Positions 14,064 to 61,009 of a stretch of 64,000 nucleotides of DNA are shown here, one piece after another (position 1 is the first letter of the stretch; the number at the start of each line of letters is the position of its first letter). The translations under genes were made by a program, and so were the position numbers. Under the pieces are notes generated by a model. That model was not told where the DNA came from. It saw only the letters and a program-made list of their open reading frames with translations, and made no database searches. Source of the stretch: Candidatus Dormiibacterota bacterium (lineage in GTDB: Bacteria > Chloroflexota > Dormibacteria > Aeolococcales > Bog-877); the NCBI GenBank assembly GCA_963804565.1, contig CAWDQV010000001.1:1045365-1109364 (forward strand), written 5' to 3'.

Positions 14064-15761
14064 TCAGTGCCGAGCCGGCCGCAGATCCCGCAGCAGCAGC
14101 CGGGCCTGCCGCCTGCCACGCCAGGAGTCCACCTCCAACTCGAACAGGGCGTCGACCTTCCTCCCGGCTGGGAGGTGAGCGCGCAGGTGCGGCCGGCTGA
14201 AGCTGATCGCCTCGGCGCTTCCAGTGTCGTCAGAGAGGATCACCTTGAGATGGTCGCCGGTCCTCCCCAGGCTCTCGGTGCGAACCACGGTAAGCCCGCT
14301 GGCGCAGAGCAGGACAGACGGGTTTCCCATGCCGCAAGGCTGAAGAAGGAGCAAGTCCTCGGCTAATCGGAGGCTGCACTCCCGCAATCCCACCTCGGCA
14401 TCCACCCGAAAGGAGCGAAGCGGCTGGCGCTCCCCGAGTTGGTCCCGCACTGCGGCTACCAGGCGATTCTCAAACTCCTTTGCGGCTCCTTCGTCAGGGG
14501 CCAGGCTGAAACCGCCCGCCGAGATGTGTCCGCCGTAACTGATCAGGCGATCCGAGCACGCCCGGAGCGCGTCGACCACATTCAGTCCGGGAACTCCCCG
14601 GGCTGACCCCCTCCACTTGTCCCCGGTCCTGCTGTAGACGAAGGCGGGCCGACCGAACTCCTCGGCGAGGCGCCCGGCCACCAGCCCCACTACCCCGGGG
14701 ATGATCTCCGCTGAGCCGAGCGCGATCACCGGCAGCTCGTCGGGCAGCTCATCGACGATGACTCTGGCGAGCGTGAGCGCCGTGGATAGCGACGCCCGCC
14801 GAGTCCGGTTGAGTGACTCCAGTTTCGATGCGGCCTCGGCCGCCTCAACCGCATCGTCGGCAAGACAGCAGCGGAGGGCCAGGGCAGCGTCGTCCATGCG
14901 TCCCGCGGCGTTGATCCTCGGACCCAGGCCGAACCCCAAATCTCCACTCGTGGGAGTTCCGTCGACGCCCGCCAGTTTGGCCAACTGGACAAGCCCCCGG
15001 GGAGCGTGGTTCTCCCAGGCGGCGAGGCCTTGCCGCACCAGCCACCGGTTCTCGTCCTGGAGAGGCATCATGTCAGCCACCGTTCCCAGTGCCACCAGCG
15101 GCAGCTGGGCGGTCGCGGTGCCGTCGGCAAGGAGCCCGGCAGCCTCCATCGCGCGAACCAGCTTGTAGGCGACCCCGACGCCGGCCAGCCCCTTGAACGG
15201 GTACTGGTCGTCGGGGCGTTGGGGGTTGACAAGGGCATCCGCCGGGGCCAGCTCGACCCCGGCAGCACCATCTTCCCGATGCGGCAAGTGGTGGTCGGTA
15301 ATGATCAGCTTGAGCCCCTCTGGACGGTTCCTGGCCACCTCGACCGCGGTCGTGCCGCAGTCCACGGTGATGACCAGTCGCGCGCCCTGCCGGTGCAGTT
15401 CCACCAGCGCCTGGGAATTCAGACCGTACCCCTCGCTCTCCCGCTGGGGGATATAGGCGATCGGCCGGTGCCCCGCTGCCCGGAAGGCTCGAACCAGCAG
15501 GGCGCAGGCGGTCACACCATCCGCGTCGTAGTCGCCGTAGATCGCGATCTGCTCGTCGTCGGTCACGGCGGCGCGAATCAGCTCGACGGCGCGTCCCATA
15601 TCAGACAAAAGGAGCGGATCGAACTCCTCACCGGTGGCCACCGCCCGCGCTCGGGCGACCTCAGGCGAGCTGCCTCTCGATCGGGTCACTCGGTCAAATG
15701 CGGAAGCGGCCTGGTCCGCCTCGGCGCCGGGCAGCGTCCACTCCCTGGCGGCGCGTTTCAA
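14064..15761 (-). CDS. recJ: single-stranded-DNA-specific exonuclease RecJ
   Basis: DHH motifs (IAIYGDYDADGVTA...ITDHH) and a DHHA1 domain. 565 aa. Confidence 0.9.
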   Translation of the reverse strand: MKRAAREWTLPGAEADQAASAFDRVTRSRGSSPEVARARAVATGEEFDPLLLSDMGRAVELIRAAVTDDEQIAIYGDYDADGVTACALLVRAFRAAGHRPIAYIPQRESEGYGLNSQALVELHRQGARLVITVDCGTTAVEVARNRPEGLKLIITDHHLPHREDGAAGVELAPADALVNPQRPDDQYPFKGLAGVGVAYKLVRAMEAAGLLADGTATAQLPLVALGTVADMMPLQDENRWLVRQGLAAWENHAPRGLVQLAKLAGVDGTPTSGDLGFGLGPRINAAGRMDDAALALRCCLADDAVEAAEAASKLESLNRTRRASLSTALTLARVIVDELPDELPVIALGSAEIIPGVVGLVAGRLAEEFGRPAFVYSRTGDKWRGSARGVPGLNVVDALRACSDRLISYGGHISAGGFSLAPDEGAAKEFENRLVAAVRDQLGERQPLRSFRVDAEVGLRECSLRLAEDLLLLQPCGMGNPSVLLCASGLTVVRTESLGRTGDHLKVILSDDTGSAEAISFSRPHLRAHLPAGRKVDALFELEVDSWRGRRQARLLLRDLRPARH

Positions 15762-15863: not shown

Positions 15864-16361
15864 GTGAGGCGGAGCAAATCAGGTCGCCCTCCGGAGACCG
15901 AGGAGGAAGCTCGGGCCAAGGCGGAGCGGCGCTACCGCAGCCTCCAGGTGTCGACCTTCTGCCTGCACGCGCTGGCTTGGATCCTGGTCACCTTCTACGC
16001 GACCGATTACCTCCCCCCGCTCTTCGTCAAGTTCACCATCGGAGTCAACGAGCCAGCGGTAGCCCAGTATCTCGCCGGCTACCTCATCTTGAGCGCGATC
16101 TGCCTGGTGCTCTCGATCAGCTTCGGCTGCTTCTACGGGCGACCAATCAGCACCAGCCGCTACTCATGGCGCTGGTACGTATTTCCGGTGATTCTGGCAC
16201 TGGTTCTGATCCCGGCCCAGGGCTCCAACGAACTCTTGACCAGGGCAGTTGAGGCGGTGTGCCTAGTGCCGGGGATATGGCTCGGGGTTGCAGTCAGCCG
16301 GCCGTGGCAGAGACGGCGACTCCGGCGACGTCCCGCTCGAGGTCGCGTGGCCGCGCCGTGA
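15864..16361 (+). CDS. small hypothetical membrane protein (about 4 TM helices, basic C-terminal tail)
   Basis: This is the only strongly GC3-biased, hydrophobic reading frame in the 530-bp gap between the recJ start and the fbiC end (STFCLHALAWILVTFYATDYL..., four predicted helices). A GTG at 15864 is preceded by GAGGA. An alternative GTG lies at 15948. The 3' end overlaps fbiC convergently by about 67 nt. Confidence 0.4.
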   Translation: MRRSKSGRPPETEEEARAKAERRYRSLQVSTFCLHALAWILVTFYATDYLPPLFVKFTIGVNEPAVAQYLAGYLILSAICLVLSISFGCFYGRPISTSRYSWRWYVFPVILALVLIPAQGSNELLTRAVEAVCLVPGIWLGVAVSRPWQRRRLRRRPARGRVAAP

Positions 16362-18308
16362 CCGGCCGGTAGAGCGTGTCGCGCTCCCGGGGAGTCCGTC
16401 CAGCACCCCGGATAGCGGCCTCGATATCCCAGGGATCGAGGTTCTGGCCATGGTCCGCCCCGCTCATCCGGGTGATCGACTCTTCCATAAGGGTTCCCCC
16501 GAAGTCATTTGCTCCCCAACGCAGCGACTCGGCGACTCCCTCGGGTCCCAGCTTCACCCAACTGGTCTGAATGTTGGGAATGTCGCTGCCGAAGTAGAGC
16601 CGGCAGAAGGCGGTGAACCGCAGGGAATCCTCGAGGGTGAGCGGCTCGCGAATGCCGAAGTACTTGCCCAGGGTGTTGTGCTGGACCTGGAATGGCAGCA
16701 GCACGAACTCACTTATCCCACCCGTCTCGCGCTGAAGGTTACGAATCACCTCCAGGTGCTGAAGTCGATGCCAGGGGTTCTCGATATGTCCGTACATGAT
16801 CGTCGAAGTCGTGGGGATTCCCACTCGGTGGGCGGTCTTGACGATCTCCACCCACTCCGAAGTGGTGAGTTTCTCGGGGCAGAGAATCCGGCGCACCTCC
16901 TCGACCAGGATCTCCGCGGCGGTTCCCGGCATGGTGCCCAAGCCGGCATCTTTCAACTGGCGTAGGACGTCTTCGACCGATCGTCCGGCCTCTTGGGAGA
17001 TGTAGCGAATCTCCTCCGGCGAGAGTGCGTGAAGGTGCAGCGTCGGCCAGCGCTCCTTGATCTCCCGGAAAAGCTGGTCGTAGAACCCGAGGTTCAACTC
17101 CGGGGTGAGTCCGGACTGCATGCAGATCTCGGTGGCCCCGCGATCGACCGCGTCCTCGATCTTGGCAAAGACGGTGTCGTGGTCATGGAAGTAGGCGCCC
17201 TTGGCGTTGATCGAGCTGCGCCGGAACCCGCAGAACGAACAGCTGCCGACGCAGACGTTGCTGATGTTTACGTTGCGATTGATCACGTAGGTGACCGTGT
17301 CCCCGACCAGTTCCTGGCGGAGCTTGTCGGCCGCCGGCTGAAGATCGGCGAGCGACTCCTGGTAGACGGGGAGTCTCTCCTGGAGGTGGTAGCCGAGGGT
17401 TCGGGCCTTGGCGGCCAGCTCCACTTCGCTGGGCCAATCGAACGCTGGGCTCACCGAGTCGCCATCCAGGGATATCCCACCGAGGTCGGTCGCTCCGGCC
17501 TCGACGAGTGATGGCCAGTTATCGAAATTGAGGTTCGGCGGAACCTGGACTGCGACATCGCTTGGCAGGATTGCCCGGGCCATCTCCACGGTGGCCCGCA
17601 CCGTCTCGGGGTCAGGGGCTGGCTGATCGGCCATCGGCGTGTCGGGCTTGGGGATGAAGTTCTGGACGATGACCTCTTGGATGTGCTGATGGCGCTGGTG
17701 GCAGTCCCGGATCAGTTCCAGGGCGTGCCGCCTGTCGTCCTCAGTCTCGCCAATCCCAACCAGGATGCCCGTCGTGAATGGAATCCCCAGCTCCCCGGCC
17801 GCCTCCAGGTGCGCCAGTCGCTCCTGATAGCGCTTGCCACCGCCCATGGCATGGGCCCGGATCTCGTCGGTGCCGGTCTCGAGCATCAGGCCCATCGATG
17901 CGTTCCAGGGCTGGAGGCGGGCCAGGCTGGCGCGCGAGAGCAGGCCTACATTGGTGTGGGGCAGCAGCCCGAGGCTCATCGCCCGGCGACACACCTCCTC
18001 GACCAGGTCGACGAACGCGTCCTCGTCGCGCAGACCGAGGTCGGGAAGGCGCCAAGGTTGCTCTCCGGCCATGATCAGCACCTCGCGGCAGCGCAGTCGG
18101 CTGGCCTCGGCCAGGTGGTGGTCGACCTCGGCCACGCTGATCAGCCCCCCTGATCCTTGCGGTACTCGCAGTAGCCGCAGCGTCGGTAGCAGCGGTAGGT
18201 GATGTCCACCGTGTAGCTGCGGCTGAAGGTCAGGTAGTGGGCGTGGTACTCCGGCTGGTGGCGAGTGGCGACGCCAGGCTGAACTGGGACGATCGCCTCA
18301 TAAGCCAT
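16294..18308 (-). CDS. fbiC: FO synthase FbiC (CofG/CofH fusion; 7,8-didemethyl-8-hydroxy-5-deazariboflavin synthase), interrupted by a 1-nt frameshift near 18137-18143
   Basis: The N-terminal fragment (18141-18308) carries the CofG radical-SAM motif TYRCYRRCGYCEY. The 613-aa body (16294-18135) carries the CofH radical-SAM motif CVGSCSFC plus CofG/CofH C-terminal regions. The two parts are in different frames, separated by a C6 (G6 on the coding strand) homopolymer. Adding one G would restore ...RKDQGGLISVAEVDHH.... A further frame change near 18310-18360 is possible. Confidence 0.8.
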
Positions 18309-18399
18309 GCCCAGATTATGAGACCAGGCCTGGGGGCCGGTCTCAGACTCCGGGTCGGGACCATCAGGCTGGAGAAGGCAGCTCGGTTCTTCTCCATGT

Positions 18400-19074
18400 A
18401 GCTGTCCAGGGCCATCAGCATCTGCTGCTGGAAGGCGAGGCGGTCGACAAGGTCGGACGGCGAGGCGCGATTGCTCTCGCCCGAGAGGTGGCGCTGGATC
18501 CAGGGCGGGATCGGTCGAGACCAGGTGGTTCGTTCCTGCGGACAGGATCACCGTCTCGGGGTGGTCGTCCTCGACCCGCAACCCGACCCGCAGCAGGATT
18601 CCGGTGCGGTTCGCGAGCGCCCAAATCCGCTCCCAGTGGCCCGGGATCCTGGCGCATCCGATCCGGGCGGGTGTAGCGGATGGCGGGGTCGTTGATGATG
18701 CTCATGTTGGAGTCGCCCCAGCGCACCAGCCGCTCGACCACCGGCTCGTCGAGGTCGCGGGAGACCCACATGCACCAGGGAGGCACACCGGTTGTCCAGG
18801 TCCGGGGGGATGAACCTGCGTTCCCTGCCGCATTGCCATCGCCAGCACCTCGACGATGCTCGCGTGGCGCAGGCAGTAGGCCCTTCCCTCCACCACCTTC
18901 AGGTGATCCTTGCAGGCCACCCAGGAGCAGTCCACCGCCCGCCGGTCCCGATATAGGCAGCGATAGGCTTCCTGCTCGCGAACACCCGGGCTGGTCGCAT
19001 CCACCTCCCTCGGGTTCGCCGTACCGCACGGGGATCTCCTGTTCGAGGGTGGGTCTGGTGGACGGATTGGCCAT
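18400..19074 (-). pseudogene. remnant of an unidentified gene (about 200 aa of protein-like sequence spread over three frames)
   Basis: Protein-like minus-strand segments are EAYRCLYRDRRAVDCSWVACKDHLKVVEGRAYCLRHASIVEVLA (frame mod 2), then PWCMWVSRDLDEPVVERLVRWGDSNMSIINDPAIRYTRPDRMRQDPG (mod 0), then HWERIWALANRTGILLRVGLRVEDDHPETVILSAGTNHLV (mod 2), then SDLVDRLAFQQQMLMALDSYMEKN (mod 1). No single intact ORF exists and the family was not recognised. Confidence 0.35.
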
Positions 19075-19255
19075 GTTTTAGCGCCTCCCTGGGCTGATTC
19101 ATCGAGGGCCATGTGCCCGTTGGGGGCGAAGCGACGGGGGCCGCAATCGCACTTGCACGGACAACTTGGGGCGAAGATAGCAGAGGAACTGAGGCTGGGC
19201 AAGGGATTTGCCAAGGGGTCGATTACTTGTGACAGTCTCCGTTAGTCGTACTGCT

Positions 19256-20815
19256 TCAGGGTAGAAGTCGGTAGGCGGGGATTGTCATGAACGGCACGAA
19301 GTTCGGATCCAGCGCTACCTCGGTGAACAGCTCAGCCGCCTCCCGATGATCGTCGCCTAGCTCCGCCAGCACCTCGTCGCGGATTGCCAGGACCTGTTCT
19401 CGAGTGACCTTTCGGTGGTGGACCCACTGCCAGATCTGGGAACGGGAGATCTCAGCGGTGGCGGCGTCTTCCATGAGGTTGTTGATCGCCGCCGCCCCCA
19501 CACCCCGGAGCCACGAGCTGAGGTACTGAATGCCCACCGAGACGTTGAGCCGCAGCCCAGCGTCTGTGATCTCTCCTGGTGTAGCCGCCACGTTGAGCAA
19601 CTCACCCGCTGTGATCTCCACCTCCTCGCGCCGTCGCTCCAGCTGGTGCGGCCGATCGCCCAGCACCTCGTCGAACACCCTTTCGCGACCGGGACCAGGT
19701 CCGGGTGGGCGACCCAGGTGCCGTCGAAGCCGTCGCCGGCCTCGCGAAGCTTGTCCTCGCGCACCTTCTCTAGCGCCAGCTGGTTGAGGGCGGCGTCGCG
19801 GCGGCTGGGGACGAAGGCGGCCATCCCGCCGATGGCGTGGGCGCGGCGCCGCGTGGCATGTCTTTACCAGGAGCTCGGTGTAGGCCCGCATGAAGGGAAC
19901 TGTCATTGACCACCGAACCGCGATCGGGGAGGATGAACGCGAGGGTCGTCGCGAAACTTCTTGATGATCGAGAACATGTAGTCCCAGCGCCCGGCATTCA
20001 GTCCGGTTGAGCGCTCCTGAAGCTCGTACAGGATCTCCTCCATCTCAAAAGCGGCGAGCACCGTCTCGATCAGGACGGTCGCTCTGATGGCACCTCTGGG
20101 GATCCCTAGATGGTCCTCCGCGAGGCGGCAGGCATCATTCCAGAGCCGCGCCTCCAGATGGCTCTCCAGCTTGGGCAGGTAGAGGTAGGGACCCGACCCT
20201 CGCTTCAGCAGCCTGGAGGCGCAATGGAACGTGAAGAGCCCGAAGTCGAATAAGCTGGCCGAGACCGGCTCTCCATCCACCAGTAGGTGCTTTTCCGGGA
20301 GGTGCCACCCCCTGGGTCGCACCACCAGAGTGGCGGTGCTCGGGTTGAGCTGGTAGCTCTTTCCCGCCGATTCCAGTGCAATGGTCCGCTCGACCGCGTC
20401 GATCAGGTTGCCCTTGGCCTTCCAGGCAGTTGGACCAGGTTGGCGAGTTGGCGTCCTCGAAATCGGCCATAAAGACGCTGGCCCCGGAATTGAGAGCGTT
20501 GATCATCATCTTCCGTTCGACTGGCCCGGTGATCTCCACCCGACGGTCGACCAGATCGGATGGCGGCGGCGCCACGTTCCAGCTCCTGTCCTCCCGGACC
20601 GTTCTGGTATCGGCCAGGAAGTCGGGCAGCTGACCTCGGTCCAGCTGCGCCTGCCGGACCTCGCGCGACCGCAGGAGCGCCTCCCGGGTTGGGCCCAATT
20701 CACGTTGCAGACGTGCCACCAGGGCCAGCGCCTCGGGGGTGAGCACCCGCTTCCCGGCCGCGCCCCCGTCTTGGACGATCTCGATCCCCGGGATGGGTTC
20801 GTCGGCAGCTGTCAC
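19256..20815 (-). pseudogene. aceB: malate synthase A (AceB), disrupted by at least 4 frameshifts
   Basis: The N-terminal segment is [20 protein letters not shown] (frame mod 1). The middle is [14 protein letters not shown]...[46 protein letters not shown] (mod 0). Then [14 protein letters not shown] (mod 1), [15 protein letters not shown]...[16 protein letters not shown] (mod 0), and the C-terminus [22 protein letters not shown]...FMTIPAYRLLP (mod 1). All are collinear with malate synthase A. One junction (after KTCH) looks like a single inserted G outside a long homopolymer. Confidence 0.8.
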
Positions 20816-22128
20816 GCGGATGGGGTCGTCTCGAACTGCGCCTCCTCGGTTGACCCCTGAAGGGCGAGGGTGGCGCTCTCACCGCCGGTGACGGTCTCCA
20901 GAACCGCGTCGAAGTAGCCTGCTCCGACTTCAGACTGATGGCGGGTCGAGGTGTAGCCCCTTTGCTCCAGTTCGAACTCGCGCTGCTGTAGACGGACGTA
21001 GGCGGTCATGCCCTCCTCCTCGTATCCCTTGGCCAGCTCGAACATGGAGCTGTTGGCGACGTGAAAGCCGGCCAGGGTCACGAATTGGAAGCGGTAGCCG
21101 AGCTCTCCCAGCTTCCACTGGAAGTCGGCGACCTCGGCATCGTTGAGATGCTTCTTCCAATTGAACGAGGGGGAGCAGTTGTAGGCCAGGATCTTCTCGG
21201 GGTACTTCCGATGGATCGCCCTGGCGAACTGAGCGGCTTCATCGAGGTTGGGGGTGGAGGTCTCGAACCAGAGGGCGTCGACGTAGGGTGCAAAGGCGAG
21301 TCCGCGAGCAATCACCGGATCAATCCCAGGACGTATCCGATAGAAACCCTCAGAGGTCCTCTCGCCGGTCAGGAAGGGCTTGTCCCGCGGGTCAACATCA
21401 CTGGTCAACAAGGTGGCGCTCAAGGCGTCGGTTCTCGCCACCAAGACGGTCGGGATGTCGAGTACATCACTGGCTAACCGGGCAGCTACCAATGTCCGTT
21501 CGAACTGGCTGGTCGGGATCAGAACCTTTCCACCAAGATGGCCGCACTTCTTCTCCGAGGCGAGTTGGTCCTCGAAGTGGACCCCGGCCACTCCGTTCTC
21601 GATCATCGACTTCATAAGTTCGAATGCGTGGAGTGGCCCACCAAACCCAGCTTCGGCGTCGGCCACGATAGGCACCACCCAATCACCGTCGTGGTGCCCC
21701 TCCGCCCAGGCGATCTGGTCGGCTCGGAGCATCGCGTTGTTGAGCCGGCGGGCGAGCGCGGGGGCGCTGTTGGCGGGATAGAGGCTCTGGTCTGGATAGG
21801 TTTCTCCGGAAAGGTTGGCATCGGCGGCTACCTGCCAGCCCGAGAGGTAGATCGCCTTCAGCCCGGCCTTGACCATCTGGACAGCCTGCTGGCCGGTCAG
21901 CGCGCCGAGGGCGGGTACGTAACCAGACGTGGTCAGCATCTCGAAGAGCCGTTCCGCACCACGGCGGGCCAGCGTGTGCTCAACGTGCACCGAGCCGCGT
22001 AGCCGGACCACCTCCTCGGCGGAATAGGGGCGGAAGACTGTCTTCCAGCGATCCGAATCCCAGCTCTGCAGGAGCTGCTCTGCGGGGCCAGGTTCTCTGC
22101 CGTTCGTATGCGCCGAGGTCGGTGTCAT
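20812..22128 (-). CDS. aceA: isocitrate lyase
   Basis: 438 aa, intact, with catalytic motif [11 protein letters not shown] and typical ICL sequence throughout. Its stop overlaps the aceB start by 4 nt. Confidence 0.95.
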
Positions 22129-22495
22129 GGCACCATGCCTCCTTTCCGAGGGCGATCGAGACTAGGGGAAGTGTTTGATCTTGGCTCCGCGCCAACGACT
22201 GCCGCGGACTTGGTCCGGTCGCGGCTGCGCGCCTGCTGTGGCCAGCTGGCGAGATGATCGCCGGCTTTCTGACGGTGCCCTCCCTGCTCCATCGGCAGAT
22301 CCTAGGGGCGAACCCGACGGCTGTCAATAATCGGCAGGTGGTTGCTTTGGGCGCGTCGGTAAGACGCGATGGCCAACCAAGGAGTTCGCGTGCGGACCCA
22401 TCCTCAGCCGATCGAGTGGACCTCGGCTGATCTAATTGAAGGCGCAAGAGTACTTTCGGGAACCGTCCACCGCCAGTTGGCGTCATCTTGAGTCG

Positions 22496-23116
22496 ATGCG
22501 CAAGCCCTCGGAGTACGCGCGGCGGCTGCGACTTCCTCTGTCGCTATCAACGCTATCGACGCTCGTGCTCGTCTGTGCTGCATGCGGTGTCTCTGCGCAG
22601 CCCTGGAGCTTCCACACCTCGGGTCCATCGATACGCTTGCTCACGTCGGGAGTGTGCCCGCAGTCTCTTGGATCGGCACGCGAGGTCAGCAACTACGGTG
22701 CCTGGCGCTTCAGCGAGCTGGTGCCCGGTTCGCCAGTGGATGGCCTTATCTGTCGATACGCCGCTGCTTCGGTCTTGTCTCCAGATGCCCATCTGCAGCC
22801 GACGCTCGATGTCCAGGTTCGGCTGGATCGTGCGCAGGCGACGAGGCTTGCCGATGTGGTCCGAAGGCTCAACACCGAGAAACCGGTGGGGACGTATCAC
22901 TGCCCTGCGGACTTTGAGAGCGCGACGCTCATCGCCTTCGCTTACTCGCATGGCAGCGACGCCGATCTCTGGTTCTCCGACACAGGCTGCGAAACTTTGG
23001 ACAACGGCTCCATCGGGGCCGCCGCGGCCGGCCATCCGGCCTTCGGTACGCGGTTTGCCTCCCTGGTCAACAAACTTGCCCCTCCAAGCAGACTCAGAGT
23101 CCCCTATGTGGGCTGA
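22496..23116 (+). CDS. hypothetical secreted protein / possible lipoprotein
   Basis: N-terminal signal peptide MRKPSEYARRLRLPLSLSTLSTLVLVCAACGV with Cys near the cleavage region. The overlapping frame 22488-23174 is Arg-rich junk. The segment has locally lower GC (about 58-60%). Confidence 0.45.
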   Translation: MRKPSEYARRLRLPLSLSTLSTLVLVCAACGVSAQPWSFHTSGPSIRLLTSGVCPQSLGSAREVSNYGAWRFSELVPGSPVDGLICRYAAASVLSPDAHLQPTLDVQVRLDRAQATRLADVVRRLNTEKPVGTYHCPADFESATLIAFAYSHGSDADLWFSDTGCETLDNGSIGAAAAGHPAFGTRFASLVNKLAPPSRLRVPYVG

Positions 23117-23263
23117 CTTCTTCTGCCCACTCCGCGCGGGTACCAACACTGTCGCCAGCTCTACCGCCGACTGACCGCGCGCTCAATGAGCACACAGAAC
23201 TAGCGTTCTGCGAGTCCGCTCGACTGCGCGATGTCGGTCGGGCGTCGTAGCGTGATTCACCGC

Positions 23264-23785
23264 TCATTGGCGCTTCACGATCCGGGTCCGGCGTCGGGGG
23301 CGTGCGCCGCCCAACCCATCCTTGGCAACAACGCTGATGGAACCGTCCGGCTCGAGTTCGACGCGCGTGGTCTGCGAGACATCCTCCACCCCGTGTTCGC
23401 GTAGCGCCTCATCGGCGTCCTCGATATCGAGCCCCTGGCTGCTGAGCGCGCCGGGATTCCAACGACCACCGGAGGCGAGAACCTTCGAGGAAGGCTGGAG
23501 AATTTGCCGAAGCAGAGGACTGTGCAAGCGGCCCTGCCCCACTGTCCAGTTGACCGCCAGCAGGGTGCCGATGATCAGCAGCCCCCCGAAAAGCGAGCTG
23601 TCGGGCCCGGTCATCGCGGGTTGTACAGCGTTGGCCACCAGCAGCACCAGGACCAGGTCGAAGATCGTCATCTGACCGAGCTCGCGCTTGCCGAAGAGTC
23701 GGAGTCCGACGATCATCACGAGGTAGATGGTCAGGCAGCGGACCACGATGTCCCAGGGGGCGATAGCGAGGTGAGTCAGGTCCAT
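23264..23785 (-). CDS. DUF421 (YetF-like) membrane protein
   Basis: MDLTHLAIAPWDIVVRCLTIYLVMIVGLRLFGKRELGQMTIFDLVLVLLVANAV matches the conserved N-terminus of DUF421/YetF proteins. The start is taken at the internal Met (the listed ORF begins at 23827). Confidence 0.7.
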   Translation of the reverse strand: MDLTHLAIAPWDIVVRCLTIYLVMIVGLRLFGKRELGQMTIFDLVLVLLVANAVQPAMTGPDSSLFGGLLIIGTLLAVNWTVGQGRLHSPLLRQILQPSSKVLASGGRWNPGALSSQGLDIEDADEALREHGVEDVSQTTRVELEPDGSISVVAKDGLGGARPRRRTRIVKRQ

Positions 23786-50572: not shown

Positions 50573-51205
50573 ATGCCGCGAACCCCAAGGAGGACAGGCA
50601 CTCGGCGTACCACCGCGCGCCCTGCCGCAAGGACCACACGAAGGCCGGCGGCCAGGCGAACCGCCGCACGCACGACCGCACGTAGCACTACGGCGCGGCG
50701 GACCACAGCGCGGCGCACTACTCGCACCGCCCCCACCGCCGCTTCGCTGAGCAAGAACCTCTCAGCGCAGTTGAAGGCCCTGGAGAAGCGCCTGGCCGAC
50801 ATCGAGAAGAAGCTCGACGCGGCCGTGACCCGCAGCGCCGCCGCTCCTCGGACCACCCGTAAGCCCGCTCGGCGCACGACTGCTCGGCGTACCACAGCCC
50901 GGCGCACGGCCACTGCGCGGCCGGCGACTCGCGCGCGCCGGACCACCGCTCGCGCTACCACGGCGAAGCGTCGCACCGCCGCCCGGACGACACCCGCTCG
51001 TGCGACCACTCGGCGCCGGACGGCCCGGACTGCGACCGCAGCCGCGCCCCGTCGCGCCGCAGCGAAGAGGACCGGGCGCGCCCCGCGCAAGACGACGGCA
51101 CGCCGCGCTCCCCGCGCAGCGGCAGCTCCGAAGGCTGCACGTCGCCCTGCCAAGCGGCGGGGTCGGGTGACCCTATCCGGTGCCGGAGGATCCGGCGCCT
51201 CCTGA
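50573..51205 (+). CDS. highly basic Arg/Thr/Ala-rich tandem-repeat protein with a central amphipathic helix (possible nucleoid-associated/histone-tail-like protein)
   Basis: ATG at 50573 preceded by AGGAGGA. 210 aa, of which about 30% are Arg, arranged in (T)TARRT/ARRTTA repeats on both sides of SLSKNLSAQLKALEKRLADIEKKLDAAV. It is followed by an intrinsic terminator. The antisense frame is also open because of the repeat composition, but lacks a start context. Confidence 0.6.
   Translation: MPRTPRRTGTRRTTARPAARTTRRPAARRTAARTTARSTTARRTTARRTTRTAPTAASLSKNLSAQLKALEKRLADIEKKLDAAVTRSAAAPRTTRKPARRTTARRTTARRTATARPATRARRTTARATTAKRRTAARTTPARATTRRRTARTATAAAPRRAAAKRTGRAPRKTTARRAPRAAAAPKAARRPAKRRGRVTLSGAGGSGAS
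50590..51170 (+). repeat. imperfect tandem DNA repeats (about 12-15 nt units such as CGCACGACCGCA / CGGCGCACTACT) encoding the RRTTA repeats
   Basis: Visible periodicity of CGNACNACNGCNCGNCGN units across the ORF except for the central about 100 nt. Boundaries are approximate. Confidence 0.55.
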
Positions 51206-54757: not shown

Positions 54758-55372
54758 GTGCCGGAAGTGGTCGTGTCCTTCTTGGACGGCGAGGTCCTCT
54801 ACGGAGAGTTGCCCCTGTTGCACATGGACGACCCGTTCGTCGACCTGGATCTGCATACCCTGGACGGCAACACGCGACAGGCCCTAGTGCCGGTCAGCGG
54901 GGTGCGCCAGATAGACCTGACCAGGGTCGATCAGATGGGCGACGACTTCGACCTGAAGGCGTTGGCAAGGGTCGCCCTGCACTTCATCGATGGTCAGGTG
55001 ATGCGGGCTCACGTGGTAAACCCGGCGTCACTGCAGCGCTTCGGGTCCGTGTGGGACGTGATTGACGCGCAGAGCCGAGAGCACAAGATCTGCGCCGTCC
55101 CCTACACGGCGCTCAAGGGTGCCTTCTACGTTCGGCGATGGGATACCCGGTCTCCCCTGGAGCGCTCCAGCTCGGTCGCCGCTGGCCACTCCGGCCGGCG
55201 GCGACTGGCCGAGATCCAGTCCCGGCGCAACCGCCAATCGTTGAGCCGCAAGCTGCCCCATGGAGGAGGCGGCCTGATGGACCGGGTAGACCCTGGGGAG
55301 GGACGCCCCCCGAAACGGCGGGGGTCGCCTGGGGCGGAGGATGGTCCGCCCCCAGACAAGGGTTCCCGATGA
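54758..55372 (+). CDS. hypothetical protein with two Sm-like/beta-barrel-like modules and a disordered Arg/Gly-rich tail
   Basis: VVVSFLDGEVLYGELPLLHMDDPFVDLDL and ALHFIDGQVMRAHVVN resemble Sm1-type motifs (inference only). The stop overlaps the start of the downstream epimerase gene (ATGA). Confidence 0.45.
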   Translation: MPEVVVSFLDGEVLYGELPLLHMDDPFVDLDLHTLDGNTRQALVPVSGVRQIDLTRVDQMGDDFDLKALARVALHFIDGQVMRAHVVNPASLQRFGSVWDVIDAQSREHKICAVPYTALKGAFYVRRWDTRSPLERSSSVAAGHSGRRRLAEIQSRRNRQSLSRKLPHGGGGLMDRVDPGEGRPPKRRGSPGAEDGPPPDKGSR

Positions 55373-56319
55373 GGATCTTGGTCACCGGGGGTGCAGGGTT
55401 CATCGGCAGCCATCTCACCGACCGGCTCCTGCGTGAGGGCCACCAGGTGGGGGTGATCGATGACCTGAGCAGTGGCCGGCGGGAGCTGGTGAGTGGTCGG
55501 GCCCGCTTCTATCAACTGAGTGTGGAGAGCGAGTGGGTGAGCAGCGTGATCGACCGGGAGCGCCCCGAGGTCGTCTTCCACCTAGCGGCTCAGATCGACG
55601 TGCGCAAGTCGGTCAGCGATCCGCTCCATGACGCCAACGTCAACGTGCTGGGCACGGTCCGGCTGCTGGATGCCGCAGCCGGCGCTGGGGTCCGTCGATT
55701 CATCTTCGTTTCGTCGGGAGGGGCGATCTACGGGGACACCGAGACAATTCCAACTCCGGAATCCCACCCTTGGCGGCCGGCTTCCCCCTACGGCGCGGCC
55801 AAGGCCGCCGGTGAGGCGTACCTGACAGCCTTCGCCACCTCGTTTGGGCTCGAAACCGCGGTGCTGCGTCCGGGCAACGTCTACGGCCCCCGTCAGGATC
55901 CGCACGGCGAGGCCGGGGTGATCGCCATCTTCAGCGACCTGCTGCTCAGGGGCCAGCCGCCGGTAATCAATGGAGACGGGCTGCAGACCCGCGACTACGT
56001 CTTCGTCGATGATCTGGTGGAGGCGGCCGTCCTGCTGATCAGCGGCCCGCTCGGCCAGTACAACATCGGGACGGGCCGAGAGACCAGCGTGGTCGAGGTC
56101 GCCTCGGAGCTGGGCCGGGCGGTGACGGAGATTCGCCCCGGCAGCAGCCCACCGCCGCCACCTCTCTCGGGACCGGCACGGGACGGCGAACAGCGCCGTA
56201 GCTGCCTGGACTGCTCGTTGGCGGCCGCCCAGCTCGGCTGGACCGCCAAGGTATTGCTACCTGAGGGGCTGAGAAGGACGCTCACGTACTTTGCGGAGCG
56301 CGGCCCGAGTTACTTGTAG
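55369..56319 (+). CDS. NAD-dependent epimerase/dehydratase (GalE / UDP-glucose 4-epimerase-like SDR)
   Basis: [16 protein letters not shown] Rossmann motif and catalytic YGAAK. The start is taken at the ATG at 55369. The listed ORF from 55138 includes a junk-like leader. Confidence 0.85.
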
Positions 56320-56543
56320 CGGAAGGTGATCCTGCCCCTGGTCAGGTCATAGGGGCTGAGTTCGACCTTGACCTTGTCTCCGATCAGAGTTCGGATGTAG
56401 TGCTTGCGCATCTTGCCGGAGATGTAGGCGAGCACCGTCTGCCCCGTCTGGAGCTCCACCCGGAACTGGGCGTTGGGCAGCGGCTCGACCACCGTGCCTT
56501 CGATCTCGATGGTCTCTTCCTTCTGCTCCTCTACCGGAGTCAC
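56310..56543 (-). CDS. infA: translation initiation factor IF-1
   Basis: [66 protein letters not shown] is near-identical in pattern to the bacterial IF-1 S1 domain. A GTG start at 56543 gives a 77-aa protein. The longer ORF to 56642 adds an atypical leader. Confidence 0.85.
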
Positions 56544-56687
56544 GCGGGAGACACGAGGACGCGCGGGCCCGCGCCTGGCGCGGCCACCCATCGAGCGTCT
56601 TGCCAAATTGCCGACCTCCGAACTCAGCTGGGGAGACGGCACGACCAGCCGCTTCCAAGGAAGCTCGATTGTAGCCTGTGCCGGAGC

Positions 56688-57725
56688 TCAGCCCACCGGC
56701 ACCCGGGGCACCAGCTCGCCCCCGCCGCGATGTCGCGGACCGATCACGTGCACCAGCCGGCCGGCCCCCTCCAGCTCGCACTCGATCCGGTCTCCCGGCT
56801 CCAGGAAGCGGTTGCGCTCCTGGCCGCTGCCACCGCCGACGGTGCCGCTGGCCAGGACTTCGCCGGCCTCCAGGGGCTCTGCACCGGAAGCGTAGGAGAC
56901 CATTTCGGCGAAAGACCATCGGGCGGCGCCTAAGCGGGCCTGAGCAACCCGCTCCCCGTTCAGGAAGGCGCTGGCCGTGAGCTGAGACGGGTCCCCCAGC
57001 TCGTCCGCGGTCACCAGCCAGGGGCCGAGCCCACTCGCGAAGTCCTTGGACTTGGCCGGACCGAGGCGCACCTTCATCTCGTCCGCCTGGATGTCGCGTG
57101 CCGAGAAGTCGCAGAACACGGCGTAGCCGGCGATCGCCTGAGCGGCCTCCTCCAGGCTTAGGTCGCGGCCCCCGGAGAGGAGCACACAGGCCACCTCAAG
57201 CTCGTAGTCGAGAAGGTCGGTGTAGGCCGGCCAGGGCACTTCGGCCCCGGGGGCGAGAAGGGTCGCCGGGTTGCCCTTGTAATAGACCGGGCGCCGATAC
57301 CACGGCTCGGGTATTGCTTCATCCCGGCGTCTCGCCCCCGCCGCCACGTGCTCCTCGAACGCGTAGAAGTCGCGCAGCAGCGGGGGACGCAGCAGCGGCA
57401 GCCGCTCCACCTCGTCGGGCCGATAGACAAGGCGGCTGCCGGAGGGCGCGAGCTGATTCGGTTGCTGATTCGAGGCGAGCTCGATCGCCTCGGCGGCCAT
57501 CGTCAGCGCTCGCCGGCCACCGCGGAGCAGCGCCGTCAGTTCGGGGGGGAAGGTCGCCACGGCCCATCGGGCCGCATCCCCAGAACCCTGGTCCGCCCAC
57601 CACAACTCGCCGGCCGCAGTGACGTCCACCAGCCGGGGCGTTCCGGACTGGGAGTCGCCGACCTCGGCCACAACTCTCGGTATGAGCCCGAGCGAGCCGC
57701 CTATCCCGACCGTCGCGAGGCGCAT
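56688..57725 (-). CDS. fumarylacetoacetate hydrolase (FAH) family protein
   Basis: 345-aa ORF; the FAH-family call is by overall resemblance only, without a named motif, and rests partly on its position next to hmgA. Confidence 0.75.
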   Translation of the reverse strand: MRLATVGIGGSLGLIPRVVAEVGDSQSGTPRLVDVTAAGELWWADQGSGDAARWAVATFPPELTALLRGGRRALTMAAEAIELASNQQPNQLAPSGSRLVYRPDEVERLPLLRPPLLRDFYAFEEHVAAGARRRDEAIPEPWYRRPVYYKGNPATLLAPGAEVPWPAYTDLLDYELEVACVLLSGGRDLSLEEAAQAIAGYAVFCDFSARDIQADEMKVRLGPAKSKDFASGLGPWLVTADELGDPSQLTASAFLNGERVAQARLGAARWSFAEMVSYASGAEPLEAGEVLASGTVGGGSGQERNRFLEPGDRIECELEGAGRLVHVIGPRHRGGGELVPRVPVG

Positions 57726-57734
57726 GTCAGCTCC

Positions 57735-58866
57735 TCAGTCGTCGATCTTGGGCATCCAGGACTCGGCGTACTCCAAGATCTCCGCCTGCTCGGCGCCCGC
57801 CAGCGGATGGAGGGGGTGGACCGCATCGATCATGACGGCCACCTCGTCGTGGTGAGTCTTTGTCGACTGCCTGGCGCGCTCCACAGCCTTCGGTTGCGGG
57901 CCGTGATGGATGCCCTGGGGATGCCAGGTCATCATGCCGGCGTCGATCCCGGCGCGGCTCATGAACTCGCCCGCGTGGTAGAAGAGCACCTCGTCGTAGT
58001 CGATGTTGCGGTGGTAGAAGGGCAGCCTCACCGCTCCCTCGTCGTCGATGCCCTCGATCCGGCGAGGGGTGAAGGTGCAGAGGACGAAGCCCGAGGTCTT
58101 GAAGGTCGTGTGAACCGACGGGGGCAGGTGGTAACGGCCAGAAGTGACCGGACGGATGTCCCGCACGTTGAGCGCGAAGGCGCTCAGGTCGCCCTTCCAG
58201 CCGACCGTGTCGATCGGATCGAAGGGGTAGAAGACCCTGCGTCCACTGGCCCTCACGTTCGATCACCAGCTCCCACTCTCCAACAGCGTTGGGTGGGCCG
58301 GCTGGAATCGGCATCTCCGGCAGCCGCAGGACCGCCCGGTCGTACGGCGAGTGCTGCCCCATCCGGTCGGCGGGTGGCAGTTCGGGCATCTCGTTGGCAG
58401 CGATCACCAGCAGGAAGCTCTCCTCGCCCTCGGGGAAGATCCGGTGGGTGGTGCCTCGCGGGAGGACGATGTAGTCGCCCTGCTCGTAGGCCAGCTGGCC
58501 GAAGTCGGTCGACATCTCGCCGGCACCTCGATGGACGAAATAGATCAGGTCGGAGTCCGCGTTTCGGTACGCATAGGGCATCGCCGTGGTCCGTCGCGAG
58601 ATCTTGATCCGGAGGTCCTCGTTGCCCAGAACCGGCGTCAGTGCCGCTCTCGGGTCCTTGGCGTCGTCCGCCTCAACCCGCCGCAGGTCGTAGGCGCGTG
58701 GCCTGAGCGGGCCTTCGATTCGTAGCCACTCCGTCGGAGCGTGGGCATGGTAGAGGTGCGACGCTGGTCCGAAGAACCCCTGTCGGGCGAACTCCTCCTC
58801 ATAGGTTCCTTCGGGTAGGTCGCAGTGCGCCTGCCGGCTGTAGCGTCCTCTGGATTGAGGGAACAT
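57735..58866 (-). pseudogene. hmgA: homogentisate 1,2-dioxygenase (HmgA), split by a frameshift near 58256-58262
   Basis: The N-terminal 170 aa is in one frame (AYRNADSDLIYFVHRGAGEMSTDFGQLAYEQGDYIVLPRGTTHRI...EREGQWTQG). The C-terminal 173 aa is in another (VFYPFDPIDTVGWKGDLSAFALNVRDIRPVTSGRYHLPPSVHTTF...FYHRNIDYDEVLFYHAGEFMSR...). Removing one G from a GGG run joins them as ...QWTQVFYPFD. Confidence 0.75.
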
Positions 58867-58872
58867 TCGGGG

Positions 58873-59988
58873 TCAACCTCCCGAAAAGCTGATCACCGTC
58901 TTGATGTCGTCGGGCTGGCGGCTGAAGGCGTCTGCAAAATGCTCCGCCGAGACCCGGCGGGTGACGATCTGCTCCAGCACGCCGGGCCACTTTCGAACGG
59001 CAGCGCCCAGCATTCGAGCGGCCGCCTCGAAGTGGCGGCGGTTGGCGTTGACCGTTCCGAAGACGAGCTTGTTGCCCAGCACCATGTCCAGGTTGAGCGA
59101 ATCGGAGTCGACGGTGACCGTTCGCGTGCCGGCAGTCACCGAGCTGAGGCAGCAGACACCGTTATGGCCGGTGGCGGCGATGGCGTCCATGGCGACCGAG
59201 GAGGCGCCGGTCGCCTCGAAGATTATGTCGATATGCCCCAGCTCCGCCGCCAGCCCGGAGACGGGATGCTGGTCGGCATCGAGAAGGTTGGCGCCTACTG
59301 CTTTGGCGACCTTGAATGCGGGTGACGTCGGGTCGGCCTTCGCCACCAGACTCACCTCAAGGTCGCGCAGGCGCAGAAAGATGGCGGCAAGCAGGCCAAC
59401 CGCCCCAGCCCCGCAGACCAACGCTTGCTTCGGGTCCCAGGGCATTCGGCCGCGCTGAATGCTGAAGCACTGGATCAGACCCTTCTCGACGATGCTGCTT
59501 GGCTCCATCAGCACCCCGACCTTAGTCAGCGTGGAGGGCAGCGGGATCGAGGTAGTCCGCGGACTCGACGTAGCGCTCGGCCATGTACCCGTCCCGGCCC
59601 TTGATCCCGCGCTCGGTGTAGTTGCCGGTCAGGCAGTCGTCACTCTGGCCGGCGGCGCACGGTGGACAGCGCTCCGGACAGGGCCGCCGGACGGTGGCCA
59701 CCACCAACTGCCCCTTCTGCAGGTCGACTGCCGGCGGGGGCGCTGACACACCCGCCCGAGGTTCTCGTGGCCCAGCACCAGGCTGTCACGGCCCGCGGGA
59801 GGTGCGCCGTAGCCATCGTTGGCGATCTCCAAGTCGGTGCCGCAGACGCCGACCTCGACCACTTCGACCTCAACGGCTGCGCCCGGCTTGCCGTCAGCCC
59901 CCTGCACCATCCCGGTCCCGGAGGGCTCGCTGATCTCACCGAGCCTGACGCTGCCCTTGGTGCCCGGGGTGGTGACGATGGCCTTCAT
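58873..59988 (-). pseudogene. Zn-dependent medium-chain dehydrogenase (glucose/threonine dehydrogenase-like), split into three frames
   Basis: The catalytic-zinc region is VEVGVCGTDLEIANDGYG...[11 protein letters not shown] (frame 1). The structural-zinc site is [16 protein letters not shown] (frame 2). The Rossmann domain is ALVCGAGAVGLLAAIFL...VNANRRHFE (frame 3). Confidence 0.7.
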
Positions 59989-60015
59989 CGACTGCCTCCT
60001 AGCTGCGGCCGCAGA

Positions 60016-61009
60016 TCACGGCAAGCCTATCGTTATTGGTCCGGGAGCAGGGTGATGCCCCTCAGGTTGAGCGGCCGGCGGATCGCCAGGTACACCACCG
60101 CCCCTACCACGGTGACCAGGAGCCGGTCGAAGGCCCGGTTCGAGAATTGCGATCGCGGCGGCCACCGGTGTAGCGAGGCCGAAGGCCACCAACAGAAAGG
60201 TCATCGAGCCTTCGTACGCGCCGATCCCACCGGGGAGGAGGCTGATCCCCCCGGCGAGGTTGGCGATGGCGTAAACGAATGCCACCTGGTAGACCCCGAG
60301 ATTCACCCCGACGCTCCGGACGGTGAAGATAGAACATGGCGATGGCGGTCACTGCTGCCACCGGTCCCAGCAGCGCGGGCCAAAGGGTTGCTGGGCGCCG
60401 GGCGATGAGGATCACGTCGCGGTGGAGCGCCACCAGGTCAGCCGAGTACCGGCGGACGATCGGAACCTTCACCGCGAAGTGCATCACCAAGTTGAACCCC
60501 CGGGGCCAGAGCAGGATGGTGGAGATTCCCATGATCCCTAACAGGGCGACCACGACCGCCTCCTGGGCTCCGGGGATCCGCCCCGCGCCGGGTACCGCGG
60601 CGGCGATCAGCCCGATTGGATAGAGGAGCTCCTGGACCACCACGGTGGCCGATACCTCCCCCAAACTCACCTTGGCATGCTGGCGCAGGATGAAGGCGCG
60701 GCTGAGTTCGCCCAGGGGCAAGATGGCTGTCGGCTGGCCCGCGAAATATATGAGGATGGTCTCCAGAGCCCCGTGGTCCAGCTTCAGGGGCTTGAGGAAG
60801 AGGTGCCACTGATACCCCTTGATCAGGTAATAGGTGAGCGAGAGCAGCAGCACCAGGGGAAGGTAGGCAAGGTTGAAGCGGCTCAGCGCTTGGCCCAGCT
60901 CGTCGGGACGTACGTAGGCGACGATCAGACCGAGGATGGCAAGGCTGATGAAAGCTGCGAGCACCGTGCGCAAGCTGAGGAAATGCCGAGTGCTGGCTGA
61001 GCCTTTCAT
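60016..61009 (-). pseudogene. UPF0104 / lysylphosphatidylglycerol-synthase-TM-region-like membrane protein, frameshifted near 60290-60320
   Basis: The N-terminal 230 aa is in one frame (polytopic; YLIKGYQWHLFLKPLK). The conserved C-terminal segment VAFVYAIANLAGGISLLPGGIGAYEGSMTFLLVAFGL is in another frame. Both frames end in Arg/Gly/Pro-rich junk. Confidence 0.6.

Follow-up and report, generated by a model that had tools for sequence, protein, structure and literature searches.

Clustered reading-frame breaks around fbiC and aceB of a Candidatus Dormibacterota contig probably reflect strain alleles merged in the assembly consensus

The 64,000-nucleotide stretch analyzed here (the window) belongs to a single contig of 2,391,061 bp from an uncultured Candidatus Dormibacterota bacterium and contains recJ, fbiC, a gene for a 241-aa protein, aceB and aceA in this order, all on the minus strand. 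The size of this 2.39-Mb contig suggests that the source is a long-read metagenome assembly. The outer genes, recJ and aceA, are intact, as is purL, and the three genes in between are broken. The fbiC gene (16294-18308), which encodes the bifunctional CofG/CofH FO synthase, lacks one G and is thereby split into two parts, an N-terminal piece of 55 aa and an ORF of 613 aa. The 241-aa gene (18343-19074), coding for a conserved Cys-rich hypothetical protein without a family match in Pfam or NCBIfam, carries six +1 insertions, and aceB (19256-20815), the gene for malate synthase A, is found in six pieces as a result of four +1 insertions and one -1 deletion.

To call indels specific to the window, we aligned it with nine syntenic Candidatus Dormibacterota loci. 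Twelve window-specific frame-breaking indels, namely ten +1 insertions and two -1 deletions, were found between positions 18148 and 20415, with 5 breaks in aceB, 6 in the 241-aa gene and 1 in fbiC. The first-pass annotation of this DNA had recognized the clustering, but its count of at least six breaks was an undercount, and the gene that it described as a remnant of roughly 200 aa in four pieces is indeed broken but encodes 241 aa and is interrupted by six insertions. Its remark that recJ, aceA and purL are free of breaks holds: no window-specific frameshift was detected in the flanks at 10.8-18.1, 20.4-22.1 and 24-32 kb (about 31 kb aligned to relatives). Even genes of the block remain free of breaks over long parts, namely over 1.85 kb in fbiC and over the first 400 bp in aceB. 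Across the 35.9 kb of aligned window, the 18 coding frameshifts, all single-base events (16 insertions versus 2 deletions), are confined to two blocks with a summed length of 4355 bp; in 200,000 random placements, none was as tight as observed, the tightest spanning 11258 bp.

The aceB gene starts with GTG and overlaps the aceA stop by 4 bases. Three of its insertions read as a doubled third codon position, at 20415 (CA[A]G, combining the Gln codons CAA and CAG), 19939 (CG[C]G, Arg codons CGC and CGG) and 19908 (GT[C]A, Val codons GTC and GTA), and the fourth, at 19852 (CAC[G]CGG), falls between codons and does not form a synonymous doublet. The deletion maps to 19681-19684 (approximately 19682), within AAAGGGTG, and can be read either as GAG to G-G or as G4 to G3, the missing base being ambiguous. 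As deposited, aceB lacks any single ORF. When the five single-base events are undone, a stop-free AceB of 518 aa is obtained, the length shared by most Dormibacterota AceB proteins, and it matches TIGR01344 with 716.7 bits (cut-off 594.5) over profile positions 1-510 of 511. Searches for a conspecific aceB, with the full-length gene and with its middle part, each peaked at 86% identity; no conspecific contig covering the five aceB indels was found, and look-ups of exact products (AceA, the FAH gene, the ABC ATPase, DUF421, the 216-aa aceB fragment, the 613-aa FbiC and P0163) yielded no match. The case for aceB leans on the signature and the block that it shares with the other genes.

The 241-aa gene can be compared directly with its counterparts in the same species. 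Three conspecific contigs, L161, L162 and L163, come from three different samples and show 98.8%, 98.0% and 96.1% nucleotide identity to the window, and all three encode an intact copy of the protein (P0121, 98% identity). The ten window insertions in the interval 18347-19252 are absent from these contigs wherever they are covered. Within the gene, the insertion at 18978-18979 reads TC[G]C, and the conspecific contigs have TCC. At 18811-18812, the window has 'CA', where C (Leu) is found in eight of the nine relatives from other species, T (Leu) in L008 and A (ATC, Ile) in the conspecific contigs; at 18772-18773 it has 'GC', where other species have G (GTG) and the conspecific contigs C (GTC). 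The insertion at 18642-18646 (GATCCCGGGCC versus conspecific GATCCC-GGCC) doubles either GGG/GGC or GAT/GAC, its placement being ambiguous. At 18512 (ACC[G]ATC), the G corresponds to GTC (Val) of L008 and L009 and the A to conspecific ATC (Ile). Finally, two codons upstream of the stop, AGTC at 18346-18349 equals conspecific AGC (Ser) plus GTC (Val), the latter being present in six of the nine aligned other-species relatives. Thus, the extra base and its neighbour represent known alleles clearly at 18811, 18772 and 18346-18349, with the doublets at the first two sites consisting precisely of the allele that most other species have and the conspecific one, and compatibly so at 18512 and 18642-18646; aceB and the second block stand outside this conspecific comparison. 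The spacer between aceB and the 241-aa gene (19095-19252, minus strand) holds another four extra bases, each a single one, at approximately 19252, 19235, 19127 and 19096. None of the four occurs in the two conspecific contigs that span the spacer, and the third contig, which extends only as far as 19096, also lacks the base at that position.

A second block of the same kind, also on the minus strand, lies 38 kb from the first one, at 58240-60328, and contains six coding +1 insertions and an intergenic one (58867). It affects three unrelated genes in the same manner: an LPG_synthase_TM membrane protein gene (60033-61009; insertions at 60328 and 60146), a glucose/alcohol dehydrogenase-like gene (58873-59988; 59748, 59730 and 59549) and a homogentisate dioxygenase-like gene (57735-58866; 58240). 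Removal of the insertions restores full-length, stop-free ORFs, and all six coding insertions display the doubled synonymous third-position pattern.

Considering both blocks together, 14 of the 16 coding insertions look like a synonymous third codon position doubled with two different bases. Against a simple null expectation of 6.7 in 16, this count has P of approximately 2e-4, a value which is too optimistic; with an alignment-aware null of 0.50, obtained by re-calling simulated insertions through the same alignment pipeline, the binomial tail, calculated by hand for this codon-phase test devised post hoc, is approximately 0.002. The inserted base equals its neighbour, thereby extending a run, in only two of the 16 cases, compared to 7.6 expected at random, and a single insertion falls between codon positions 1 and 2. 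The first-pass annotation had singled out one aceB junction as a G inserted outside a homopolymer; this corresponds to 19852, and insertions of this type turn out to be the rule. Changes in homopolymer length are limited to the G7 to G6 change in fbiC and, possibly, the aceB deletion, and none of the nine runs of at least 6 bases that were aligned outside the blocks contains a window-specific indel.

These features bear on whether the blocks could be ordinary error-rich patches, that is, stretches in which the long-read consensus was unpolished or of low coverage and acquired random indels, strain variation playing no part, as might result from a long-read bridge within a hybrid assembly. Such an origin would be in line with the 2.39-Mb source contig, with the grouping of the events in kilobase-sized blocks between clean flanks and with the two G-run deletions, which are typical of long-read consensus (PMC9262707). 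However, random insertions are expected to extend a neighbouring base about half of the time and to occur in all codon phases, neither of which is the case here, and they do not account for several doublets that consist of two known alleles. Furthermore, substitution errors are not raised in aceB, and the substitutions in the tract represent selected variation. We therefore consider patches of random error unlikely. The earlier suggestion of a local assembly problem stands, with 'low quality or low coverage' replaced by a more specific form: almost exclusively +1 insertions outside homopolymers, which look like allele pairs and are absent from conspecific contigs.

The selected nature of the variation is apparent from the comparison with L161. 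Across the 241-aa gene, the window and L161 differ at 23 bases, of which 14 are synonymous and 9 non-synonymous, whereas random changes would be synonymous in 24.5% of the cases (P = 2e-4). Because of this skew, the tract can be considered to carry real haplotype variation rather than noise. Outside the blocks, the conspecific contig L164 aligns with the window over 2817 bp without gaps. None of the 35 differences to L161 and L164 outside the blocks is accompanied by an insertion, whereas 10 of the 32 differences within them are (Fisher P = 2.6e-4), so that divergence from these contigs does not by itself predict the errors.

The other reading offered by the first-pass annotation was genuine decay. 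This would entail about 15 real single-base insertions, recent loss of malate synthase A and of the 241-aa protein, and retention of isocitrate lyase. The indels do stand in the deposited sequence, and strain-specific mutations are conceivable because in this tract the window differs in haplotype from the other conspecific contigs. Real decay, as in Mycobacterium leprae, where pseudogenes accumulated in the course of reductive genome evolution, leaves stop codons, deletions that vary widely in size and elevated non-synonymous change, spread over whole genes. The present locus resembles M. leprae in that several adjoining metabolic genes have disrupted frames, but none of these marks of decay was found at it: there is no nonsense codon, no deletion of more than 1 base and no larger indel, and undoing single-base events restores the frames. 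Nor is there an excess of private changes at otherwise invariant sites in aceB (4/299) over the intact aceA (10/325). The 241-aa gene has a higher value (10/139), with six of the ten changes located in the variable C-terminal part (residues 205-235). Bacterial pseudogenes show a deletion bias, and the 16-to-2 excess of insertions runs in the opposite direction. Moreover, the insertions favour synonymous third positions, which mutation cannot 'know'; the block straddles gene boundaries yet leaves the above-mentioned parts of fbiC and aceB clean; the three conspecific samples lack every insertion that they cover; the identical pattern recurs in the three unrelated genes of the second block; and aceB is kept in all 21 syntenic relatives examined. 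Genuine decay of the second step of the glyoxylate shunt and of the neighbouring gene is accordingly highly improbable, with the fbiC break, for which L161 has G6 and L162 has G7, set apart (see below). Since decay of aceB lacks support, the idea of isocitrate lyase being retained without malate synthase is without basis as well.

We thus favour, at a probability of roughly 85%, the explanation that the block represents an artefact of the consensus, arising in SNP-dense tracts of a long-read metagenome-assembled genome (MAG) where both alleles were written in tandem, rather than a biological lesion. Reversal of the 10 insertions and 2 deletions yields stop-free, full-length AceB (518 aa), 241-aa protein and FbiC (671 aa), which are 86%, 85% and 91% identical to those of relatives (for AceB, the best Dormibacterota match), at the same level as the intact neighbours; the residues flanking the indel sites are conserved. 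The first block also crosses gene boundaries and takes in the spacer insertions. Under the merged-allele explanation, the source sample would have contained two close haplotypes with many, mostly synonymous, differences at 18.1-20.4 kb and 58.2-60.3 kb, and at about one third of the variable sites a step of the assembly software would have placed both alleles in series instead of choosing between them, each doublet being a +1 insertion that breaks the frame. A consensus model in which indels are much likelier than substitutions might, for example, render a 50/50 C/A site best as 'CA'. The organism itself most likely has intact copies of aceB and the 241-aa gene, and the sequence provides no evidence for loss of the glyoxylate shunt in this bacterium.

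A related phenomenon has been described for the PacBio assembly of Trypanosoma brucei Lister 427, in which collapsed alleles gave rise to INDEL errors and apparent frameshifts; nearby allelic variants misaligned the reads, and truncated ORFs became full length after haplotype separation (Cosentino et al. 2021, PMC8445201). Similarly, the breaks described here lie in a SNP-dense tract and disappear in independent assemblies, although T. brucei is a diploid eukaryote and the 'alleles' of the present case would be co-occurring strains of a metagenome. Neither the doubled-allele form of the error nor its third-codon-position signature derives from that study; both were established in the present analysis. 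Homopolymer indels in Nanopore consensus sequences are known to shift the frame of gene calls (Sereika et al. 2022, PMC9262707). The present frameshifts would likewise be products of long-read consensus that fragment the gene calls of a MAG, and the fbiC deletion and possibly that in aceB fit this type, but 16 of the 18 coding events are insertions outside homopolymers. Taken at face value, the deposited sequence would depict a soil member of Dormibacterota with isocitrate lyase but without malate synthase and F420 synthesis, a metabolic claim that would find its way into reconstructed pathways. Clustered +1 insertions outside homopolymers, doubled synonymous third positions and frames restored by single-base edits provide a diagnostic of merged strain alleles that does not depend on reads, and gene-loss calls in long-read MAGs should be screened for the doubled-allele pattern before they are interpreted.

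The break in fbiC differs from the doublets. It is a -1 change from G7 to G6 at 18145-18150 (C6 on the plus strand), the C6 run that the first-pass annotation had identified and placed a few bases off, at 18137-18143. The G run is not conserved between species, G7 being present in L001, one of the nine relatives, and in the conspecific L162. Corrected FbiC (671 aa) scores 386 bits against the CofG model NF004884 (cut-off 209) and 487 bits against the CofH model NF005609 (cut-off 426); against the long fused model NF006687 its score is 627, under the cut-off of 1018. This change would be an event apart from the doublets and stem either from a miscall in the homopolymer or from a real G6/G7 polymorphism. 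L161 (run ERR10755941) agrees with the window in having G6 and gene calls of 55 and 613 aa, and L162 (SRR27943116), with G7, has an unbroken fbiC frame; as no further indel separates the two contigs, L161 does not appear to be generally indel-prone. That G6 is a variant segregating in the species through slippage of the G7 tract, truncating the CofG part after 55 residues in some strains, has a chance only somewhat below even. On the other hand, G7 runs are a classic place for sequencing miscalls, the 613-aa remainder exhibits no decay (5 private changes at 470 invariant sites) and the break sits at the edge of the artefact-rich block. It is a more tentative proposition that this slippage polymorphism exists in natural populations such that some strains are devoid of functional FO synthase, and hence of de novo F420, or switch it on and off, the 15 insertions still being artefacts. 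Contingency loci are known for slipped-strand polymorphism at short G/C tracts, and the one-unit change in a 7-base run between conspecific contigs is reminiscent of them, but the fbiC run shows no conservation between species and there is no sign of reversible switching or of selection on the tract. Evidence on F420 synthesis at this locus is weak; F420-dependent enzymes, a sign of F420 need, are not evident among the 30 annotated ORFs of the window. Two observations count against the merged-allele explanation: the occurrence of the G6 allele also in L161, and the homopolymer type of the two deletions, which represents another mode of error.

Several other candidate causes were considered and rejected. 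The ten insertion contexts have no common motif that would point to methylation or a sequence motif, although a few of them contain GATC or CGCG (judged by eye), and GC content is equal inside and outside the block. Sliding identity to the nine relatives is flat across the block, indicating that the tract is not foreign or divergent relative to other species. Programmed frameshifting or recoding is contradicted by the single-frame genes of the full-coverage relatives and of the covering conspecific contigs, with the exception of fbiC G6 in L161, and by the lack of a common motif. The spectrum of the doublets (C/G 7, C/T 3, A/C 3, A/G 2 and G/T 1, tallied by eye) fits the third-position spectrum of the clade but does not discriminate, as random pairs at 66% GC are estimated to look much alike. 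Finally, an insertion at 56658 was rejected as a member of the second block; it is shared with the conspecific contig L164 and is therefore natural.

All genes in the 14-22 kb region of the window (GC content ~66%) are located on the minus strand, with an intact recJ (14064-15761) followed by fbiC, a short unnamed gene encoding a 241-aa protein, aceB and aceA (20812-22128). Searches with AceA as a query yielded 21 syntenic loci in Candidatus Dormibacterota MAGs (79-89% protein identity), in which the order of fbiC, the 241-aa gene and aceB is conserved. In these loci, aceB (~518 aa) and the 241-aa gene each form a single unbroken frame, and fbiC (~670 aa) is unbroken wherever the contig covers it. 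The TPA MAG records L003, L005, L009 and L020 bear titles including Acidiferrales, Micrarchaeaceae archaeon and Nanopelagicaceae; all four carry the Dormibacterota locus (AceA identity 79-89%), in L005 and L009 the synteny extends from aceA to recJ (77-78% nucleotide identity), and the taxon labels of the four records look wrong. Upstream of aceA, nothing in the syntenic relatives corresponds to the region 22100-23300, and their alignments skip from ~22143 to ~23261; the coding signal of this region is weak, and a 226-aa ORF on the plus strand (22436-23116) has a signal-peptide-like or lipoprotein-like N-terminus.

The gene between aceB and fbiC (18343-19074, minus strand), a position that it also occupies in the syntenic loci with examined ORFs, had been described as an unidentified remnant. 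It is indeed broken as deposited, but it corresponds to a conserved Cys-rich protein with homologues P0121-P0162, encoded in one frame in relatives. The N-terminal region follows the pattern CDQxGC...YRCLYRDRRAVDCSWVAC...YCLRH. No Pfam or NCBIfam family was matched, sources that name the protein call it 'hypothetical', and almost all of these are Dormibacterota records.

Alignment of the window with nine of the 21 syntenic loci placed all frame-breaking indels private to the window over 10.8-22.1 kb inside 18148-20415 (hereinafter, block 1). In aceB, single bases are inserted at 20415, 19939, 19908 and 19852, and one is missing near 19682; the 241-aa gene carries +1 insertions at 18978, 18811, 18772, 18646, 18512 and 18349, and fbiC is one base short in a run of Gs (18145-18150, G6). 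Thus, the clustered breaks reported in the first-pass annotation are real, its count of at least 6 was conservative (the actual number is 12), and its homopolymer coordinate was a few bases off. In 24-32 kb, alignment to relatives revealed no window-specific frame-breaking indels.

After removal of the ten inserted bases and restoration of the two missing ones, aceB, the 241-aa gene and fbiC all encode full-length proteins without stops. The corrected AceB has the modal Dormibacterota length of 518 aa, with a best identity of 86% and a score of 716.7 bits against TIGR01344 (cut-off 594.5); for the 241-aa protein, the best relative shares 85% identity, and FbiC (671 aa, 91% identity) exceeds the cut-offs for both CofG and CofH. 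Intact neighbours such as recJ (77%) and purH (74%) show identities no higher than these. Private changes at sites invariant across relatives amount to 4 of 299 in aceB versus 10 of 325 in the intact aceA, conserved residues flank every indel, and neither nonsense codons nor indels longer than 1 base occur. This absence of substitution decay contradicts a true decay of aceB and the 241-aa gene into pseudogenes, as do the spectrum of the lesions and their disregard of gene boundaries; the proposed loss of malate synthase with retention of isocitrate lyase is therefore unsupported.

Metagenome contigs syntenic to 46.7-63.2 kb disclosed a second block (58240-60328), again at odds with pseudogenisation. 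Here, three unrelated genes carry six +1 insertions between them; their products are a membrane protein of the LPG_synthase_TM family, a glucose/alcohol dehydrogenase-like protein and a homogentisate dioxygenase-like protein. A seventh insertion lies in a spacer. Removal of these insertions restored the frames. Across the 35.9 kb of the window that was aligned, all 18 coding frameshifts fall within the two blocks, which total 4355 bp, and none of 200000 random placements was equally tight. The 30 other ORFs scanned, with or without a Pfam match and including the purine operon, guaA, a guaB-like gene and gdh, showed no sign of split genes. Separately, a 15-base window-specific insertion at 50878-50892, GTACGCCGAGCAGTC, adjoins the similar GTGCGCCGAGCG and resembles a tandem duplication that preserves the frame of a 216-aa ORF without a Pfam match.

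Among the coding events, 16 of 18 are +1 insertions, and the inserted base equals a neighbour in 2 of the 16, against 7.6 expected if random. In both blocks, the signature is a doubled third codon position: 14 of the 16 insertions fit a reading in which one synonymous third position is written twice with different bases (for example, CAA/CAG, GTG/GTC and TAT/TAC). A simple null predicts 6.7 of 16 (P about 2e-4); when insertions were simulated and passed through the identical alignment and calling steps, the null increased to 0.50, and we took P as about 0.002. Mutation has no means of sensing codon phase, whereas variation filtered by selection does. This bias, which likewise contradicts pseudogenisation, suggests that each 'insertion' is a substitution polymorphism with both alleles in tandem. 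A plain patch of random errors would account for the clustering and for the two G-run deletions; nevertheless, we consider it unlikely, because it explains neither the codon phase nor the avoidance of neighbour-identical bases, nor the allele matches described below.

Using the corrected 241-aa protein as a query, we found an intact conspecific protein, P0121 (98% identity), encoded by three contigs, each from a different sample: L161 (Logan ERR10755941, 3193 bp, 98.75% identity), L162 (Logan SRR27943116, 1997 bp, 97.96%) and L163 (JGI 3300079084, 932 bp, 96.1%), together covering window positions 16056-19586. At 10 of 10 sites in 18347-19252 (six in the 241-aa gene and four in the spacer), the extra base of the window is missing from every contig reaching the site. 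Furthermore, several doublets coincide with alleles known at the site: in 'CA' at 18811, the C is the base that most other species carry (Leu) and the A that of the conspecific contigs (Ile); in 'GC' at 18772, the G likewise occurs in most other species and the C in the conspecific contigs; and 'AGTC' at 18346-18349 accommodates AGC, the conspecific form, as well as GTC, the form in most other species. Between the window and L161, the 241-aa gene shows 23 base differences, of which 14 are synonymous and 9 non-synonymous; the synonymous share expected under random change is 24.5% (P = 2e-4), indicating that the block 1 tract represents real haplotype variation rather than noise. With the conspecific contigs also contradicting it, pseudogenisation of aceB and the 241-aa gene appears highly improbable. 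L164, the fourth of the conspecific contigs (99.15% identity), aligns outside the blocks (55109-57925) with zero gaps; insertions per variant site are 10/32 inside the block versus 0/35 outside. L164 shares with the window one extra T relative to other species at 56658, in the spacer before infA, so that this base is natural and the cross-species indel screen by itself over-calls in spacers.

The source contig, recorded at NCBI and ENA and carrying both AceA and P0163 (the broken 219-aa ORF of the window), is 2,391,061 bp long; from a single 2.39-Mb contig of an uncultured soil phylum, we infer a long-read metagenome assembly. Allele collapse in a long-read assembly has been documented to produce INDEL errors and apparent frameshifts (PMC8445201), and homopolymer indels are the classic error of Nanopore consensus sequences (PMC9262707). 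We consider it probable (roughly 85%) that the consensus merged two co-occurring haplotypes in two SNP-dense tracts, giving the frameshifts. Under this account, roughly one variable site in three would have retained both alleles in the consensus, each retained pair producing one +1 frameshift. For aceB, whose five indels are covered by none of the conspecific contigs, the shared block and shared signature suggest the same origin. Overall, block 1 is best regarded as an artefact of assembly with little biological interest, the fbiC break being a minor possible exception.

The fbiC break differs in kind from the other block 1 events. G6 at 18145-18150 is present in both the window and L161 (941-1108), breaking the frame after 55 aa, and fbiC of L161 is split into 55 aa and 613 aa, as in the window. 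Conversely, L162 (1269-1997) has G7 and an unbroken fbiC frame. Conservation of the G run does not extend to other species, and the odds are roughly even between a real slippage polymorphism and a repeated homopolymer miscall.
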